Source: Candidatus Bathyarchaeota archaeon (GTDB taxonomy: Archaea > Thermoproteota > Bathyarchaeia > RBG-16-48-13 > JAGMEO01). From it: a stretch of DNA of 29,955 nucleotides. Within the stretch, counting starts at the first letter, position 1, and every line of letters starts with the position of its first letter. Both the position numbers and the translations under genes were made by a program. The notes beneath the pieces are model-generated. The model had not been told where the DNA came from, made no database searches, and saw nothing but the letters and a program-made list of their open reading frames with translations. Of the stretch, positions 3,044 to 24,309 are shown piece after piece. Where the stretch lies: positions 1 to 29,955 of the forward strand of contig JAGMEO010000001.1 of NCBI GenBank assembly GCA_023128135.1, in the 5' to 3' direction.

Positions 3044-3158
3044 TTCATCACCTAAAGATAATGTGTTTATGAGTAACTTCTATTAAAGAAATTCAGTGTT
3101 AATCGCTATCAACTTTTTAAATTATGAGATCTGTGTTTTTATCTCTAGTCGTGATTTT

Positions 3159-3692
3159 ATGTCCGAAGAAATAATTGAAGCAAGTTTCAAAAAAAGCGGA
3201 GTCATAATTCCATCTCAAAAAGACGCTGATCTTTTGTATAAAAGCGGCTATGGGATTTTACATAAACAAGATGAAGGATCAATTTTAGGATCATGCGAAA
3301 CACTTCACTTAGTTGCTGAGAAACGGCTTCATGTAATTGATAATGAGAACCGTAAGGAACTAAATTTCCCAACGCTGCTTGAAAAGTTCCGAAGTAAAGA
3401 TGCAGAGATATGGACTAGATACCTAATTTACAGGGATCTTAGAAGTAGAGGCTATGTTGTTAGAGACGGATTCAGCTTTGGGATAGATTTCCGTTTATAC
3501 GAACGAGGCAAATATGGGGAACAAGCTGCAAAGTATATTGTCTTTGGTATATGTGAAGGAATTCCGACACCTATCAAGAAGCTTAGTGAGATTCTTCGAT
3601 TCGTTCAAAGTACAAAAAAGAGTCTCATTCTTGCGGTTGTGGATAGGAGAGGTGAGATCGTGTATTATTCACTTTCTAAACTTACTTTTTAA
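3159..3692 (+). CDS. endA: tRNA splicing endonuclease subunit, probably the structural (beta) subunit
   Basis: YLIYRDLRSRGYVVRDGFSFGIDFRLYERG and LILAVVDRRGEIVYY match the EndA C-terminal domain. The catalytic His position reads EQAAKY instead of xHSxY/HAxY. ATG 3159 chosen as start. Confidence 0.88.
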   Translation: MSEEIIEASFKKSGVIIPSQKDADLLYKSGYGILHKQDEGSILGSCETLHLVAEKRLHVIDNENRKELNFPTLLEKFRSKDAEIWTRYLIYRDLRSRGYVVRDGFSFGIDFRLYERGKYGEQAAKYIVFGICEGIPTPIKKLSEILRFVQSTKKSLILAVVDRRGEIVYYSLSKLTF

Positions 3693-4572: not shown

Positions 4573-4671
4573 TGGCGGGCCCGCGGGGAATTGAACCCCG
4601 GATCTGCAGCTATCTTCCATGGGGGGTATCATTAGGAGGCTGCTGCCTTATCCAGACTAGGCCACGGGCCC
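4573..4671 (-). tRNA. tRNA-Arg(CCU) with 21-nt canonical intron (4612-4632); CCA encoded
   Basis: GGGCCCG-TG-GCCT..AGGC-A-GCAGC-CT-CCT-A|ATGATACCCCCCATGGAAGAT|A-GCTGC-AGATC-CGGGG-TTCAATT-CCCCG-CGGGCCC-G-CCA. Confidence 0.93.
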
Positions 4672-8600: not shown

Positions 8601-9052
8601 TGTATGATGGTTTGACCGGGAAAAAATACGAAGCAACCATCTTTATTGGTGTCGTATACTACCAGAAACTCCATCATATGGTAGCAGATAAAATACATGC
8701 AAGGGCGAGAGGACAAGTACAGATGCTTACCCGGCAACCCACTGAAGGAAGAGCTAGGGGCGGAGGTTTACGATTCGGGGAAATGGAAAGAGACTGTCTA
8801 ATAGGATATGGTGCATCTCTTCTTCTGAAAGATAGGCTTTTGGACGAGTCAGATAGAACAATCATATATGCTTGTGAGAAATGTGGTTTCATCGGATTCT
8901 ATGACTTTAAGAAAAGAAAGTATATTTGCAGAGTGTGTGGAGAGAACACTGTTATTTCCCCTATTGTTGTCTCCTACGCTTTTAAACTTCTATTACAAGA
9001 GTTAATGAGTCTGGCTATTGCACCAAGAATGAAGCTTGGAGGACGAGCGTAA
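5696..9052 (+). CDS. rpoB: DNA-directed RNA polymerase subunit B (Rpo2, unsplit)
   Basis: LVRQHLDSYN, DKFASRHGQKG, KLHHMVADKIHARARG, GGLRFGEMERD and a C-terminal Zn ribbon; 1118 aa, no intein. Confidence 0.97.
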   Translation: MLNNLQSSKLDLWILMKKYIEEKGLVRQHLDSYNDFIDTGLQEIVSEVGKIQVEAQDYPFEVKLGKIEATCPRIVEVDGSDHTIYPMETRLRNLTYSAPLYLEMIPVKDGCEGLSETVYIGNFPVMLKSKLCPLSKMTPEELIKAGEDSNDPGGYFIVNGSERVTVAMEDLAPNRILVDIDDSGTKPVYRAKVFSTTVGFRARIEIKMKHSGGIYVSIPGVPSELPIIILMRALNLESDKDIVTLISSDEKIQDQLEPSFDEVQGISTTQNAIAYIGNRVAYGQIEEYRIKRAESILSRNFFPHIGQTNEHHLEKARFLGEMVLRVIELKLGRRKEDDRDHYANKRLRLAGPLLSDLFRIAFRSLCRDIKYQLDRMSIRRKALSIPTAVRPGIVTDRMNHALATGNWGRGRVGMTQLLDRKNFISTLSHLRRLQSPLSRSQPNFEARDLHPTHWGRLCPNETPEGSNCGLVKNLALMASISVAADTDKVIRFLSHLGVVSTTKPISEDEEVYAKIFVDGSLIGYHNDPVSLVRAFRKARRHGEIDPEVNIVYYSEHKRKVSPIIFVNCNVGRIRRPLIIIENGESKLTLEQITRLKKGEITFDDLILEGSIEYLDAEEEENAYVALNHESLTSKHTHLEIASYTILGICASTIPYAEHNQSPRNSYEAAMAKQALGVYSINYFNRADSRSHFLHYPQKPLVTTKPMEVLHYNEKPSGQNCIVAVLSCKGYNMEDAIVLNKSSIQRGMFRSFFYRVYVAEGRQYLGGLKDKFETPSSDIRGFRGEQYYKLLEEDGVIGVESLVDGSEVLIGRTSPPRFLEEYKEFELKGPTRRDTSITMRSAEAGTVDEVFLMVSAQGNRLVKVKARDQRIPELGDKFASRHGQKGVIGMVIPHVDMPFTEDGIVPDIIINPHAFPSRMTVGQFVESISGKVAALDGEVMDGTPFYSLTVDEIRKKLFSLGFQHSGREVMYDGLTGKKYEATIFIGVVYYQKLHHMVADKIHARARGQVQMLTRQPTEGRARGGGLRFGEMERDCLIGYGASLLLKDRLLDESDRTIIYACEKCGFIGFYDFKKRKYICRVCGENTVISPIVVSYAFKLLLQELMSLAIAPRMKLGGRA

Positions 9053-9053
9053 A

Positions 9054-12000
9054 ATGTCAGAAGAAGCAGAGCTTTCTAAAGTGTTAGAACAGATAAGTTT
9101 TGGTCTTCTGTCTCCAAGTGAGATCAGAAAACTCTCAGTTGTTGAGATTAAGACTGCTGACACTTACGATGAAGATGGAGCACCAATAACATCAGGACTT
9201 ATGGATGGACGTTTGGGAACACTTGAACCCAGACAAAGATGTAAAACCTGTGGTAATACTGCGGCACGTTGTCCTGGACACTTTGGTAACATCGAATTAG
9301 CTGTTCCAGTCATTCATGTAGAATTTGCCAAGATCATTTACAAATTGTTGACAACCGTATGTCGAAGTTGTGGTCATGTTCTCCTATCCACTGAAAATAT
9401 TAATCAATATCGTGAGAAGATGAAAAATGAAGAACAATCGCTTGGTTCCATTTCAAAGACTATGTATAAAAAAATTGAAAAAAACGCGAAAAAAAATACA
9501 ATATGTCCACATTGTGGTGCGAAACAATTAAAGATCAAGTTTAGCAAGCCAACAACCTTTCATGAAATACTTGAAGATGGTGGAGTTCGAAAACTTAATG
9601 CAAGTATAATAAGGGAGCGACTTGAACGAATTCCAGACAATGAGCTTGACATTCTAGGCTTCAATTCAAACGTGGCAAGGCCTGACTGGATGATTCTTCA
9701 TACGTTGCCAGTACCACCTGTTTATGTCCGTCCTTCTATAACTCTTGAATCTGGGATAAGATCTGAAGATGATCTAACTCACAAACTCGTAGACATCATA
9801 AGAATAAATCAAAGATTGAAGGAAAACATAGACGCTGGAGCACCAACCTTAATAATTCAAGACTTATCGGAACTTCTTCAATACCATGTTACAACATATT
9901 TCAATAATGAGGCTTCAGGGATTCCACCAGCAAGGCATAGGTCTGGAAGACCTTTAAAAACCATATCTCAAAGGTTAAAGGGTAAAGAGGGGAGATTTAG
10001 AAGTAACCTCTCTGGAAAAAGAGTAGACTTCTCTGCACGTACAGTAATATCGCCTGATCCCAACATTGGTATAAATGAAGTTGGTGTTCCCTATGCTGTT
10101 GCAAAGCAACTTACAATTCCTGTAAAAGTGACACTTTTTAATATTGATGAGATGAAGAGACTAATAATAAATGGTCCAGATAAATATCCAGGTGCCATTT
10201 ACGTTGTGAGGCCAGATGGTAAACGCTTAAGATTGGAGTTCGTTACAGAACGAGAAAAAATTGCAGAAGCCATACAACCAGGCTTCACAGTCGAACGTCA
10301 TCTAAGAAACGGAGACATTGTAATATTTAATAGACAACCTTCTCTGCACAGAATGTCTATTATGGCTCATCATGTTAAGGTACTGCCTTACAAAACCTTT
10401 AGACTAAATCTGTGTGTATGTGTACCTTACAATGCTGATTTTGATGGTGATGAAATGAACCTCCATGTCCCTCAAAGCACTGAGGCTAGAACAGAGGCTC
10501 ATATGCTCATGAGGGTTCAAGATCAAATTCTTTCACCTCGTTATGGAGGGCCAATAATTGGCGCTATTCGTGATCATATAAGTGCAGCTTTTCTTCTCAC
10601 CAGTGATTTCACAAAGTTTGGAAAGGAAGAAGTATACCATCTCCTAACAGCAGTCGGATATGACGGTCCTATGCCTAAGCCAAAGATTAAAGGTAAAAAA
10701 CCATTGTGGACAGGCAAACAAATTTTCAGTCTCTTCCTTCCAGAAGGATTCAATTACACATTGAAGTCGAGCATATGTAGACATTGCTCTGTATGTCTCC
10801 AAGAAAAATGTAAGAACGATGCTTTTGTCGTAGTAAGAAATGGAGAGTTAAAGAAAGGTGTTATAGATAAAAACTCAATTGGCGCTGAAAGATCTGAAAG
10901 TATGTTTCACAGAATCGTAAAAGACTATGGAACAGAAGCAGGAAAGACATTTCTGAACTCTATGAGTAGACTTCTTACAGAATTCATCTCTATTCTAGGC
11001 TTCACCTTTTCAATCGATGAACTAGACCTTTCAGATAGAGCAAAGAAAAAGATTAGGAGTGTCCTTGAAAGAGCTGAAAAAGAAGTTCAAGAATTGATTC
11101 AAAAATACAGGAATAAAAGTCTCAAGAGACTTGCTGGAAAAACACTCGAGGAATCCCTCGAGATATATATAATGAATAAGCTAGCTCAAGCAAGAGATGA
11201 AGCTGGAAAAGTGGCTGACCGCTTCTTCACTATTGAAAATCATGGAATAATAATGACTAAAACGGGAGCGAGAGGATCAAATCTTAACATAGGGCAAATG
11301 GCTGCTTGTTTAGGACAACAATCAGTAAGAGGAAAGCGAATCACCCTTGGATATAAGGGTCGAACACTCTCCCACTTCAAAATAGACGATCCGAGTCCAG
11401 AGGCTAGAGGTTTTGTTAATGCATCTTACAGAACAGGGCTAAACCCAACGGAGTTCTTCTTCCACGCTATGGGTGGAAGAGAGGGTCTGGTAGATACTGC
11501 GGTACGAACACAACAAAGCGGATATATGCAACGTAGACTCATAAACGCTCTGGAACAGCTGCGGGTTGAATATGATGAAACTGTTAGAAACTCTGTAGGA
11601 GACATAATTAGTTTCAAACACGGTGATGACGGTGTTGACCCCGCTAAGAGTGATCATGGGAAAGCGGTAAACATAGAAAGACTAGTTGAGACTATTAAAT
11701 TAACTACTCGAGATGGAAAACCAGTTTCCAAAAATTACATTGAAAAACAGGTTAATGAACTAGATGCCGAACTTTCTCCGGCACTCCAAAACGAGCTTAA
11801 AAAACAATTATTAAAAGTGAAATTGGGCAGAAAAGGTGTCAACAAAGCAATATTCGCTACTGTAAAAAACTTTAAAAGAACGCTTGTAGAGCCTGGTGAA
11901 GCAGTTGGCATAGTTGCGGCTCAATCTATTGGAGAACCTGGAACCCAGATGACATTACGTACTTTCCATTATGCTGGAGTAAAGGAGATGAACGTCACTT

Positions 12001-12869
12001 TAGGCCTCCCTCGTTTAATCGAGATTGTTGACGCTCGTCGATCACCATCAACTCCAATAATGACAATTCCATTAGATAAGGAACATAAAGTGAGTAAAGA
12101 AAAGGCAACTGAAATTGCACATAAAATCCTTTCGACAACAATCGAGGACGTGGCAAAAAAAGTATACATTGACTCAGAGCAAGCAGCAATAGTAATAGTG
12201 CTTGATAAAGACACGATGAAGGCTTATGATATAACTTTAGAAAAACTTCATGCACTTCTTTCATTTCCCAACTGTAATGTAAAGGTTGACGGAGAAACTA
12301 TTCTAGTAACTTCAAAGAAAACTGATCAAGATCTTCGAAAATTATTGGCAAAAACATCATCAGTACATGTCAGGGGAGTCCCTGATATACGTAAAGTCTT
12401 AATAACCGAAGAAGGAAACGAGTGGCGGCTGAATACAGATGGCTCTAACCTTTCGAAGACACTTGCGATTTCGGGTATAGACCCAACTAGAACAGTAACA
12501 AACAACATCCATGAAATAGCTAAGAGCCTAGGTATAGAAGCAGCTAGAAACTCTATCATACGAGAGGCATTCAATGTTCTTGGGGAACAAGGTCTTGACG
12601 TTGATCTAAGGCACATAATGTTAGTAGCTGACATCATGACGCACACTGGGGAGATTCGTCAAATAGGAAGACACGGAGTTAGTGGGCAAAAATCAAGTAT
12701 CCTTGCAAGAGCTGCTTTTGAAATTACTCTACCAACCATTGTTGAAGCAGCTACCAAAGGCTCTTCAGATAGACTTAATGGAGTCACAGAATCTGTAATT
12801 GTGGGTCAAAATATACCTATCGGCACTGGGCTCATCGAGTTGTACATGGGAGGCACAAAGAAATCTTAA
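9054..12869 (+). CDS. rpoA: DNA-directed RNA polymerase subunit A (Rpo1, fused A'+A'')
   Basis: NADFDGD catalytic motif, and A''-type motifs (AAQSIGEPGTQMTLRTFH, TLGLPRLIE) in the same ORF. ATG 9054 follows a GGAGGA SD. Confidence 0.96.
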   Translation: MSEEAELSKVLEQISFGLLSPSEIRKLSVVEIKTADTYDEDGAPITSGLMDGRLGTLEPRQRCKTCGNTAARCPGHFGNIELAVPVIHVEFAKIIYKLLTTVCRSCGHVLLSTENINQYREKMKNEEQSLGSISKTMYKKIEKNAKKNTICPHCGAKQLKIKFSKPTTFHEILEDGGVRKLNASIIRERLERIPDNELDILGFNSNVARPDWMILHTLPVPPVYVRPSITLESGIRSEDDLTHKLVDIIRINQRLKENIDAGAPTLIIQDLSELLQYHVTTYFNNEASGIPPARHRSGRPLKTISQRLKGKEGRFRSNLSGKRVDFSARTVISPDPNIGINEVGVPYAVAKQLTIPVKVTLFNIDEMKRLIINGPDKYPGAIYVVRPDGKRLRLEFVTEREKIAEAIQPGFTVERHLRNGDIVIFNRQPSLHRMSIMAHHVKVLPYKTFRLNLCVCVPYNADFDGDEMNLHVPQSTEARTEAHMLMRVQDQILSPRYGGPIIGAIRDHISAAFLLTSDFTKFGKEEVYHLLTAVGYDGPMPKPKIKGKKPLWTGKQIFSLFLPEGFNYTLKSSICRHCSVCLQEKCKNDAFVVVRNGELKKGVIDKNSIGAERSESMFHRIVKDYGTEAGKTFLNSMSRLLTEFISILGFTFSIDELDLSDRAKKKIRSVLERAEKEVQELIQKYRNKSLKRLAGKTLEESLEIYIMNKLAQARDEAGKVADRFFTIENHGIIMTKTGARGSNLNIGQMAACLGQQSVRGKRITLGYKGRTLSHFKIDDPSPEARGFVNASYRTGLNPTEFFFHAMGGREGLVDTAVRTQQSGYMQRRLINALEQLRVEYDETVRNSVGDIISFKHGDDGVDPAKSDHGKAVNIERLVETIKLTTRDGKPVSKNYIEKQVNELDAELSPALQNELKKQLLKVKLGRKGVNKAIFATVKNFKRTLVEPGEAVGIVAAQSIGEPGTQMTLRTFHYAGVKEMNVTLGLPRLIEIVDARRSPSTPIMTIPLDKEHKVSKEKATEIAHKILSTTIEDVAKKVYIDSEQAAIVIVLDKDTMKAYDITLEKLHALLSFPNCNVKVDGETILVTSKKTDQDLRKLLAKTSSVHVRGVPDIRKVLITEEGNEWRLNTDGSNLSKTLAISGIDPTRTVTNNIHEIAKSLGIEAARNSIIREAFNVLGEQGLDVDLRHIMLVADIMTHTGEIRQIGRHGVSGQKSSILARAAFEITLPTIVEAATKGSSDRLNGVTESVIVGQNIPIGTGLIELYMGGTKKS

Positions 12870-17412: not shown

Positions 17413-17514
17413 TGGCGCCGGGAAAGGGATTTGAACCCCTGAGATCCCAAAGGATCACAGACTCCCCTGATTTTTTCTCAAGGCCTGCGCTTTTATCCAC
17501 TCAGCCATCCCGGC
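17413..17514 (-). tRNA. tRNA-Ser(UGA) with 13-nt canonical intron (17464-17476); CCA encoded
   Basis: GCCGGGA..CAGGC-CT-TGA-G|AAAAAATCAGGGG|A-GTCTG, long variable arm GATCC/GGATC, G73. BHL helix CTTG/CAGG. Confidence 0.93.
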
Positions 17515-17591: not shown

Positions 17592-17831
17592 TTGTTGCAA
17601 TTTGATTTTCTTGAACACACCGCAGATGCCTATATTGCAGCTTATGGAAGAACCTTGGATGAAGCGTTTGAAAACGCGGCTTTAGCTATGTTCGAGATCA
17701 TAACTGATATAAAAACAATAAGACCGGGATTTCAAACCTTCGTTGTTCTTGTTTTTTATCAAAAGAGTTTTAAACCTCCAATAATACATGAGGTTCCAAT
17801 ATTTTATTCTTGTAGTTTAGGGTATCTGTAG
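17592..17831 (+). pseudogene. Archease (RtcB cofactor), truncated after about codon 45
   Basis: FDFLEHTADAYIAAYGRTLDEAFENAALAMFEIITD matches the archease N-terminus. The sequence after about 17726 is unrelated, and no frame contains the C-terminal KAxTYH motif. Confidence 0.8.
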
Positions 17832-19724: not shown

Positions 19725-20749
19725 TTAAACTTCCTTTTGCTTTTTTCTCCAAAGACGTGGATAAGTGCCAATTGGCATTATCACTCTTTCAATTTTTGCA
19801 GCTATACCATGATCTTCTTTCATCATTTGTTCGCTTGACATCATTGATCTTGCTAAAGCAATCAATTCTTCCTTTTGTGTAAAGATTCCAACAATATTTT
19901 GAGGTTTAATTCTTGAGTGTAATTTTAATACGCCTGGGAGAGCAAGACCAGCACCATGGCAAAGTGCATCTACCGCAGAATCGCGAACAAAAATTTTTGG
20001 GGTTAATTGAAATGCGTTTTCAACAGGTTGCACGATCTTCCTGATATAAGATTCGTCTTCTTTTTCTTCCCATAACGAGTAAGCGTAGTTTACATCGTAG
20101 AGGGTTACAAGGCTATCATCTTCTTTAAATGGGCCAGCCTGTGTCCTTCTAAGCTCAACCATATGAGCTCCAGAACCTATTACTTCTCCAATGTCAAAGC
20201 ATAGTTTTCTAATATATGTACCGGCTTGACATCCAACCCTGAAGAGGATATAATTATCTTTAAGTTCCAAGTTTTTTATGTAGTAAATTTTTCTCTTTCT
20301 AAGAACTCTTTTAACAGAGGAACGTAATGGTGGTCTCTGATAGATTTCTCCAACAAATTCATCCACAGTTTTTCTAATTTTTTTTTCCTGTATACTAGTA
20401 TGGAGACGCATGACACATACATATTCTTTCCCTGTTGTAAGAAGTATTCTCATGATTTTTGTAGCGTTTTTTAAAGTAATTGGTAGAACGCCTGTTACCT
20501 TTGGGTTTCCCCGGTTTAAGCCTCTAGGGTTCCTCCGTGTCCAGCACGTTCAATTTTTAAAATACGCTTAACCCACGCTACTACCTCATGACTTGTTGGT
20601 CCTGGCGGCTTATCTAAGTTAATGATTCCATTACGTAGATAATTTTGAATTGGTCTTTTTTCAGGGAAGCAGCCATATGTTAGATTTGTGCCTTCTTCAG
20701 ATTTAACAAGTATCTTTGACTTAACTGTCCATGGGATTAAAATATTCAA
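19725..20749 (-). CDS. cbf5: H/ACA pseudouridine synthase Cbf5; two exons (20749-20524, 20506-19725), 335 aa after splicing
   Basis: Exon 1 ..[24 protein letters not shown]. Removing 17 nt restores G|AC-CCA-AAG ([12 protein letters not shown]) in frame with exon 2 ([19 protein letters not shown] domain). TTG start after a GGAGGT SD. Confidence 0.93.
20507..20523 (-). other. Pre-mRNA BHB intron in cbf5 (17 nt)
   Basis: AGGCTTAAACCGGGGAA. Helix CCCT/GGGG, bulges AG|A and AA|A, inner GG/CC; contains an in-frame TAA. Confidence 0.88.
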
Positions 20750-22896: not shown

Positions 22897-24309
22897 CTAA
22901 CCCATGACTCGCCCGAGTATTGGGTACATCTCAACCATTTGTTCTTGAGCAAGTTGTTGATATAGTTGGTACAGTATCCCTACTGCAAGGAGGGCTCCCA
23001 TTCCAGTTCCAAATACTCCAAAAAAATCTGCGAGTGAAGCAACTATTGATACAATTAATCCTCCCAAAAGTGCAAGAGTAGGGATGTATCTGTTCAAAAG
23101 CTGTTGAAGAGGTTTATAGGCCCTTCTAAAACCAGGTACATGCATACCTGAATCCATGAGTTGTTTTGCAACGCTTCCAGAGTCAAGTCCTCCAACTTCA
23201 AGCCACATTCTAGCGAACATTATTCCCATGACAGCCATGAGTCCAACATAGATTAAAGCCCTAACAGGATCAGTTATTAAGGTATTAAAGTTCCTTGGGG
23301 GGATTACATAGTAAACTAGCCCACCAATTGGTTCTCGACTGGTTGCGTTATATGTTCCGATTAAATTTAACAAAAAGTTCTGGTTGTTCTGGTTAAAGTT
23401 CGACCATATTATTTGAGAGAAAAGATAGATGTTGGCGAAGAGAGCTGAAGAGAGAATTACAGGAATATTTGAGACATATAAAAGTTTCACTGGGTACTTA
23501 GCTCTATAACCTCTGAACCGTGCGTGGGCAATGGGTATCTCGACTCTAATACCTTCCAGATAGATCACAATTATAAAGACAATTACAGTCGCAATAAACC
23601 CTATCATGTCTGGAAGATTTTCTGATCTATAAAGTGCTGCCCATAATCCCGCGCCATTTAATAAAGATTGAATGAAAGCAAGAAAGGCTCCCAAAAATTT
23701 TCCATCTGGCATAGGACCTAAAGGTGCTAAACAACTCCACCAAATTTTTTGTGCCACTCCAGCTATTATAAAGAGACTTATCCCGCTTCCTATACCCCAT
23801 CCTTTCTGAACTAATTCATCTAAGAGCATGAGGATCAAGCCTACAGCGATGAGCTGGAGAAATATTATAGCAGCGGCTTCAATGGTAATGGGTCCGTATG
23901 CACCTCCAATTATGTAGACTGTTGCAGTGAAAACGGTCATGATGATAGTGAAGAATTTGGTCACACTTGTGAAAAGAGTTCTATCTTCGCTATTTCCAAA
24001 GTCAACAGATATTATTCCAGATCCAGCGAGAAGTTGTAATATAAGACCAGCTGTAACGATTGGACCAATTCCTAGTTCCATTAATGTGCCACGGTTTGAG
24101 GCAAATATTACTCTGAGATATTGGAATGGATCGACTCCTTGACCGCTTGTAATGCCAAAGAGGGGTATTTCACTCATCAGTAAATATACGACTAAAACAA
24201 GAGCGGTCCAGAGAAGTTTTTCTCCTAAATTAACTCTTCTATCAGACTTGCTGACCTCGGGCATGAAAGTTGCTATTGGTTTGAAAAATGTAAGAAAACG
24301 TCCTGGCAA
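22897..24309 (-). CDS. secY: Preprotein translocase SecY
   Basis: GTLMELGIGPIVTAGLILQLL, WGIGSGISLFI, KLLYVSNIPVIL, GTGMGALLAVGI. Confidence 0.97.
   Translation of the reverse strand: MPGRFLTFFKPIATFMPEVSKSDRRVNLGEKLLWTALVLVVYLLMSEIPLFGITSGQGVDPFQYLRVIFASNRGTLMELGIGPIVTAGLILQLLAGSGIISVDFGNSEDRTLFTSVTKFFTIIMTVFTATVYIIGGAYGPITIEAAAIIFLQLIAVGLILMLLDELVQKGWGIGSGISLFIIAGVAQKIWWSCLAPLGPMPDGKFLGAFLAFIQSLLNGAGLWAALYRSENLPDMIGFIATVIVFIIVIYLEGIRVEIPIAHARFRGYRAKYPVKLLYVSNIPVILSSALFANIYLFSQIIWSNFNQNNQNFLLNLIGTYNATSREPIGGLVYYVIPPRNFNTLITDPVRALIYVGLMAVMGIMFARMWLEVGGLDSGSVAKQLMDSGMHVPGFRRAYKPLQQLLNRYIPTLALLGGLIVSIVASLADFFGVFGTGMGALLAVGILYQLYQQLAQEQMVEMYPILGRVMG

Follow-up and report, generated by a model that had tools for sequence, protein, structure and literature searches.

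A probable bulge-helix-bulge intron in the catalytic aspartate codon of cbf5 in Bathyarchaeia

The cbf5 gene of a Candidatus Bathyarchaeota archaeon is interrupted, within the codon for its catalytic aspartate, by 17 nt (20523..20507 on the minus strand), which we interpret as a pre-mRNA intron of the bulge-helix-bulge (BHB) type, homologous to the cbf5 intron of Sulfolobales and Desulfurococcales; we put the probability of this reading at about 0.88. Coordinates refer throughout to the window, that is, the whole stretch of 29,955 nucleotides that was analysed. The BHB intron of cbf5 is in itself already known, having reportedly been described in the pre-mRNA of Desulfurococcales and Sulfolobales by Watanabe et al. 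in 2002, and what is new is the host lineage, Bathyarchaeia. Judging from the genomes compared below, the distribution of this intron appears much wider, and its origin probably much older, than the literature we searched would indicate.

The interrupted cbf5 gene

On the minus strand cbf5 is present as two frames, 20749..20524 and 20506..19725, with the following arrangement.

20524..20749, minus strand: cbf5 exon 1, with a TTG start, DKCLD and the start of the TruB catalytic domain
20507..20523, minus strand: predicted BHB-type intron, 17 nt, AGGCTTAAACCGGGGAA, with an in-frame TAA inside
19725..20506, minus strand: cbf5 exon 2, with the rest of TruB_N, TruB_C_2 and PUA; stop codon included

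The preliminary description had divided cbf5 into ORFs of 77 and 242 aa, and its coordinates, sequence and frame arithmetic proved correct. The first of these (20749..20516, minus strand) opens with TTG at 20749, preceded 8 nt upstream by GGAGG, and its C-terminal end reads ...GHGGTLEA before the TAA that had likewise been noted within the insert; the second (20453..19725, minus strand) is a portion of a longer open frame. Pfam and NCBIfam models assign DKCLD to the first piece, and the C-terminal part of TruB_N, TruB_C_2, PUA and Cbf5 equivalogs to the second. The host gene is an archaeal Cbf5, matching NCBIfam Cbf5 equivalogs with 315 and 303 bits, both above the cut-off. Exon 1 ends with the Thr and Leu codons and a G (20524), which is base 1 of the catalytic Asp codon; the other two bases of that codon, AC, open exon 2 and are followed by PKVTGVLP.... 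When the 17 nt at 20523..20507 are deleted, G meets AC and the product is a Cbf5 of 335 aa, as had been proposed, with a predicted spliced junction of ...CTAG followed directly by ACCCAAAG...; deletion of 20522..20506 instead would leave an identical mRNA, since A is the first base of the intron and of exon 2 alike.

The gene sits in its usual archaeal ribosomal-protein neighbourhood, the order in the direction of cbf5 being secY (22897-24309), an adenylate-kinase-like ORF, an EMC3/TMCO1-like membrane protein, cytidylate kinase, L14e, cbf5 and rps13. No second copy of cbf5 was found in the host MAG (620 kb at 76% completeness).

Structure and covariation of the insert

The elements of a BHB motif can be laid out across the insert and its flanks as follows, the predicted cuts falling between bulge bases 2 and 3 on each strand, which is the rule stated for cbf5 introns (PMC2738675).

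20526..20529, minus strand: H_a, 5' strand of the central 4-bp helix, CCCT; bases 2-3 of the Thr codon and 1-2 of the Leu codon
20523..20525, minus strand: 5' bulge, A G/A; predicted cut between 20524 and 20523
20513..20522, minus strand: intron-side hairpin h', GGCTTAAACC; pairing limited to GG/CC
20509..20512, minus strand: H_b, 3' strand of the central helix, GGGG
20506..20508, minus strand: 3' bulge, A A/A; predicted cut between 20507 and 20506

The BHB geometry proposed in the preliminary description is thus present as to its CCCT/GGGG helix and its AG/A and AA/A bulges, but the motif is a relaxed rather than a canonical one. Of the two outer helices as defined in PMC7714728, each with at least two Watson-Crick pairs, the intron-side h' is found in the window as GG/CC, 2 bp closing a 6-nt loop; it has just two G-C pairs because of a C.A mismatch at the place where a relative of the closest other genus (locus L003) has C-G. 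The exon-side h, which should adjoin the 3' bulge, does not form at that place, with GGAA set against CCCA and one of four positions paired, and this failure is what makes the window motif relaxed (HBh'-like). In the best constrained fold GG.G pairs with CCC three bases off, which puts the 3' site in a 3x3 internal loop. A full GGGA/TCCC exon helix occurs in 30 or more relatives, and the BHB of the window is the poorest among the 56 sequences described below. By thermodynamic folding its core has -5.1 kcal/mol vs a minimum free energy (MFE) of -14.8 kcal/mol for a competing fold, and the pair probability of the helix is about 0.001, vs 0.77 in L003. Since folding of the window as a single sequence did not recover the BHB, we set folding energy aside and relied on covariation.

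In each homologous gene we located the Leu codon that precedes the Asp and the Pro codon that follows, and parsed the interval between them. An insert of 11-41 nt lies at exactly the same codon and phase in 56 distinct sequences, all of which have one constant layout: GGNA (a strand of h), the central strand CYYT, a 3-nt bulge, a hairpin, the complement of CYYT, a second bulge, and YCCN. Here CYYT represents bases 2-3 of the Thr codon and 1-2 of the Leu codon, and the first bulge is mostly A G/A; the intron hairpin is followed by four intron bases complementary to CYYT; and the second bulge, A N/A, ends on base 2 of the Asp codon, with YCCN forming the other strand of h. When both strands are cut after bulge base 2, the junction is in frame in every one of these sequences. 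Pairing in the central helix extends to 218 of 224 cells (97%), through pair types that include CCCT/GGGG, CCTT/GAGG, CCTT/AAGG, CTCT/AGAG, CTCT/GGAG and CACT/AGTG; when the partner strand is slid by one base, pairing is at most 66%, and none of 2000 permutations reached the observed pairing. A separate covariation tool, run on a MAFFT alignment (A2), gave 91.1% of cells paired, with changes on both sides in 55 cells vs 11.9 in shuffles, a value as high being reached in 0 of 500 shuffles. Because site and phase recur in 56 sequences with covarying helices, the insert is beyond what chance would produce.

The exon half of the motif bears a corresponding mark. The Leu codon ends in A, the first base of the first bulge, in 52 of the 56 intron-bearing genes; among 52 intronless genes Leu codons are mixed, with all types in use. 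As read from these codons, synonymous exon sites are constrained and the exon is shaped by RNA structure as well.

Some individual loci depart from the general form. The introns of L026 (G025) and L122 (G045) are minimal, with 11 and 13 nt respectively, and have no space for a hairpin, being reduced to central helix, bulges and exon-exon helix. At L003/L033 (G003:C10), a run of N and a duplicated exon 1 end with intron were observed, which are probably a masked or scaffolded assembly repeat.

Proposed splicing and competing explanations

We infer both cleavage and ligation, as well as any regulatory role of splicing, and propose the following course. In the transcript, exon CCCU would pair with intron GGGG to form a 4-bp central helix, from which AGA and AAA would bulge out on opposite strands, the 5' bulge closed by a short intron hairpin and the 3' bulge by a weak, displaced exon-exon helix. 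A heteromeric (alpha-beta)2 tRNA-splicing endonuclease would cut between bases 2 and 3 of the bulge on each strand, and an RtcB-type ligase would then join G to AC, by which both the codon for the catalytic Asp and the reading frame would be restored. In unspliced mRNA, translation would end at the TAA after 77 codons.

The host genome has two EndA paralogues, as do all five named intron-bearing genomes that were tested.

3096..3692 of the window, plus strand: EndA paralogue, beta-like, without the catalytic His; matches beta-like modules
1222-1785 of locus L031 (G000:C67, elsewhere in the host MAG): EndA catalytic alpha subunit, with a Tyr/His/Lys triad

On sequence grounds we take the paralogue within the window for the structural, beta-like partner in the splicing endonuclease. 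The second has its best matches in the catalytic alpha subunits from the heterotetramers of A. pernix and S. tokodaii, and it aligns with the A. pernix alpha subunit without gaps through the Crenarchaea-specific loop, where K44/R46 correspond to K41/K43 here. It is this loop, above all its Lys, that enables the enzyme to cleave relaxed motifs of the bulge-helix-loop type (PMC3241643). The genome thus appears to encode an alpha/beta broad-specificity endonuclease of crenarchaeal type, which we infer to assemble as (alpha-beta)2. RtcB was not found in the host MAG (G000, 76% complete) and is present in four of five relatives tested, namely the sister species and three further ones. A split RtcB in the sister species was considered and rejected, being a single gene cut by two contig ends.

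Synteny with the sister species (locus L138, G001:C148:6400-7232) stops at about 17731, beyond which the sister contig runs into the N-terminus of RtcB and the window into unrelated sequence; the break, which could be a rearrangement or a chimeric join, may be the explanation of a truncated archease at 17592-17831. Two tRNA genes, at 4576-4671 and 17416-17514 (both on the minus strand; 96 and 99 nt), match a 71-position Rfam model end to end and are therefore intron-containing; ARAGORN misread one of them and missed the other. The tRNA-intron load of the host genome is heavy.

Several other explanations of the broken frame have to be weighed against splicing. That the 17 nt are an artefact of assembly or sequencing, an eventuality raised in the preliminary description, has a practically negligible chance of being true; the frame break, with nothing further, speaks for it. 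The stretch was found in about twenty metagenome runs from cold-seep and marine sediments, and contigs from two other studies of marine sediments (2016 and 2024), spanning either 20300-20633 or the entire stretch, carry the insert as independent assemblies with no letter inserted or deleted in the 17 nt; inserts at the same site occur, in addition, in the sister species and in 50 or more relatives. A frameshifted pseudogene, in which the 17 nt would be a disabling insertion and cbf5 dead in this lineage, could account for the broken frame and its in-frame TAA, and might be thought to suit both the thermodynamically weak local BHB and a small, possibly reduced genome; it is nevertheless highly unlikely. 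The sister species, whose Cbf5 is 95% identical, has an identical 17-nt intron, and between the two species exon 2 shows 28 synonymous and 13 non-synonymous changes (dN/dS 0.12), which indicates purifying selection where the relaxed selection expected of a true pseudogene had been named as a refutation; exon 1, with dN/dS 0.68 from just 10 changes, is too short for judgement. As measured by these substitutions, cbf5 is evidently not decaying and is under purifying selection. A disabling insertion is also hard to reconcile with the well over 100 genomes that have inserts in this codon phase, the helices showing compensatory changes, with a MAG in which no second cbf5 was found, and with a cut rule for BHB motifs that restores the catalytic codon exactly.

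It is very improbable, too, that the insert stays in the mRNA and is either bypassed by the ribosome, through programmed hopping or frameshifting, or tolerated because two separate polypeptides assemble. An ATG at 20453 could start a 242-aa product, and the MFE fold contains a GGG-GAAA-CCC hairpin across the 3' junction. However, inserts range from 11 to 41 nt and occur in all three phases, some of them in-frame with stops, so that no fixed hop or shift fits; the element that covaries is the BHB and not a pair of take-off and landing sites; and separate polypeptides would be without the catalytic Asp altogether. The homologous intron, moreover, has cDNA-proven splicing (PMC2738675). Among the runs listed as containing the cbf5 stretch there was no RNA run, and a metatranscriptome-labelled run of a related study was without it. 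Returning to the intron reading, the occurrence of the same weak form in the sister species, the purifying selection on the gene and the broad-specificity type of the enzyme suggest that the weak motif of the window may still be spliced, perhaps inefficiently.

Relation to known introns, distribution and origin

The published introns of cbf5, found in Desulfurococcales and Sulfolobales, have 16-44 bp, disrupt the codon of a catalytic residue and have BHB motifs that are mostly unconventional (Yokobori et al. 2009, PMC2738675). The insert in the window lies in the same gene, in the catalytic Asp codon and in the phase G/AY; at 17 nt, and without an ORF, it falls within the 16-44 nt range; and it shares the BHB layout, which is often relaxed, together with the cuts between bulge bases 2 and 3. 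A heteromeric EndA type, with a predicted assembly state, is likewise common to both sets of hosts. In ten Thermoproteota genomes outside the class of the window the layout is identical in all ten, and four of these have introns of published sizes: 38 nt in a genome of 1.7 Mb, as in A. pernix; 22 nt in one of 3.0 Mb, as in S. solfataricus; 36 nt in one of 1.6 Mb, as in Staphylothermus; and 33 nt in another of 1.7 Mb, as in Stetteria. While the correspondence of these genomes to the four organisms is only suggestive, the equality of their intron sizes with the published ones, in the same layout, argues that the insert in the window is the known cbf5 intron. By position, phase, size and structure, as far as these can be compared in DNA, it is a member of the published family, in agreement with the kinship to the Aeropyrum and Sulfolobus introns put forward in the preliminary description. 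It differs in its host, which belongs to the Bathyarchaeia of cold-seep sediment whereas the published hosts are hyperthermophilic Crenarchaeota; in that splicing is here predicted from DNA and was there demonstrated by cDNA; and in outer helices weaker than those of most relatives.

Other BHB introns offer more distant parallels. The non-canonical BHB introns that (alpha-beta)2 EndA with the Crenarchaea-specific loop removes from archaeal tRNAs (Hirata et al. 2011, PMC3241643) have the same motif and the same predicted enzymes, and intron-containing tRNA genes are present in this very genome; the cbf5 substrate, however, is a protein-coding mRNA, in which the exon half of the motif is made of codons and is constrained by protein sequence as well as RNA structure. 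The BHB intron of Haloferax volcanii HVO_1309 resembles the predicted one of cbf5 in that an mRNA is the substrate of the tRNA splicing endonuclease, but is located in a 5' UTR, is cut by an alpha2 enzyme and interrupts no codon (Schwarz et al. 2020, PMC7714728).

The 2009 study found no cbf5 intron in Thermoproteales, Cenarchaeum, Nitrosopumilus or Korarchaeum, scored Thaumarchaeota as intron-free and dated the intron to the ancestor of Desulfurococcales and Sulfolobales (PMC2738675); a 2020 paper (PMC7714728) and a 2023 review (PMC10485636) confine it to Crenarchaeota or a small group. No report of a cbf5 intron outside Crenarchaeota was found in the literature searched, which covered few subscription journals. 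The genomes nearest to the window among named ones are Bathyarchaeia MAGs, the best of them 76-77% identical in Cbf5. The fused RNAP A on which the preliminary description had based its view of the host was borne out, rpoA (9036-12869, plus strand) being a single 1277-aa ORF with Rpb1 domains 1-5, not split into A' and A''. As the host is one of the Bathyarchaeia and not a classic crenarchaeote, the published range of the intron is extended, which was one of two outcomes that had been envisaged; the other, an independent gain, now appears less likely.

A survey of cbf5 in Bathyarchaeia and a Cbf5 phylogeny with the intron mapped onto it, both suggested earlier, bear on this point. In an even sample of the phylum, for which counts are approximate and represent our reading of a table of matches, about 38 of 54 Bathyarchaeia (about 70%) have an insert at the site, 25 of them as separate matches to exon 1 and exon 2 and 13 as in-frame extra codons with stops. 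Among other Thermoproteota, split matches were seen in about 142 of 335, with at least 14 more having in-frame extra codons (about half in all), and the positives are spread over roughly 30 families. No intron is present in large families whose complete genomes measure 1.4-1.9 Mb or 1.6-2.5 Mb; these would fit Nitrosopumilaceae and Thermoproteaceae. A Cbf5 tree computed from 78 named sequences shows the intron in nearly every deep branch of Bathyarchaeia. It is lacking in a single nested clade with 19 members (Bathy-6-like MAGs from soil and peat) and in one further genome, and at least six changes between presence and absence are required on the tree. The intron therefore looks, on the evidence of this tree, ancestral within Bathyarchaeia, with a few losses. 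Beyond this class it is found in Ca. Culexmicrobium cathedralense, Ca. Jordarchaeum madagascariense and Ca. Borrarchaeum yapensis, and within Asgard (the phylum of Jordarchaeum) 17 of 71 genomes have a same-site intron of 26-41 nt, all 17 with four of four central pairs and strong hairpins.

Certain entries among the genomes surveyed call for separate mention. At G029:C11:292011-294314 (Bathyarchaeia) and at G475:C9:50003-52660 (Asgard), matches to cbf5 fall into two blocks about 1.4-1.6 kb apart that share a single open frame, 797-902 aa in length; the appearance is that of an intein, or of some other large in-frame insertion, elsewhere in cbf5. Two MAGs labelled 'Candidatus Sulfotelmatobacter sp.' (L038) and 'uncultured delta proteobacterium' (L110) have an intronless cbf5 nesting inside Bathyarchaeia and are probably mislabelled or contaminated bins. 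L040, titled 'Nitrososphaerota', groups with Culexmicrobium on the Cbf5 tree.

The Bathyarchaeia intron may have been inherited from a common ancestor with Sulfolobales and Desulfurococcales, or gained independently at a site predisposed to it, where conserved exon bases make up half of a BHB beforehand. In favour of the latter, the exon bases GGGA..CYYT..A G / A Y CCC provide h, H_a and parts of both bulges in intronless genes too, the distribution is patchy, as the large intronless families exemplify, and tRNA introns are thought to transpose in some Thermoproteota. We nonetheless regard independent gain as unlikely. Site, phase, bulges (AGA, ANA), the GGGG strand and a hairpin closed by G-C are identical across Bathyarchaeia, other Thermoproteota and Asgard; the match in position, phase, bulge bases and helix layout to genomes of Sulfolobales and Desulfurococcales type, and an intron that looks ancestral within Bathyarchaeia, both argue for inheritance. 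The large intronless clade of Bathyarchaeia, moreover, is nested inside intron-bearing branches, a pattern that looks like loss, and we know of no mechanism for repeated exact insertion. A more far-reaching proposal, that one ancient intron descends from the common ancestor of Thermoproteota (TACK) and Asgard, has kept the same codon phase and has been lost repeatedly, is offered tentatively, at somewhat less than even odds. That one and the same intron occurs in several classes, and in a second phylum as well, does imply either an origin much older than had been supposed or movement of the gene or intron between lineages.

At a practical level, gene callers will give two fragments or a pseudogene for cbf5, a near-universal archaeal gene, in most Bathyarchaeia and in many MAGs of other Thermoproteota and Asgard, which distorts the inference of gene content and probably also estimates of completeness. 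In biological terms, an essential RNA-modification enzyme whose active-site codon would exist only after splicing of the tRNA type constitutes a simple, testable case of mRNA splicing in archaea. Should the notion of one ancient intron be true, this would be the oldest traceable protein-gene intron in archaea, and the lineage from which eukaryotes arose would have had an mRNA intron that the tRNA-splicing machinery removes; that it was retained would then imply a function, such as the coupling of Cbf5 supply to splicing capacity.
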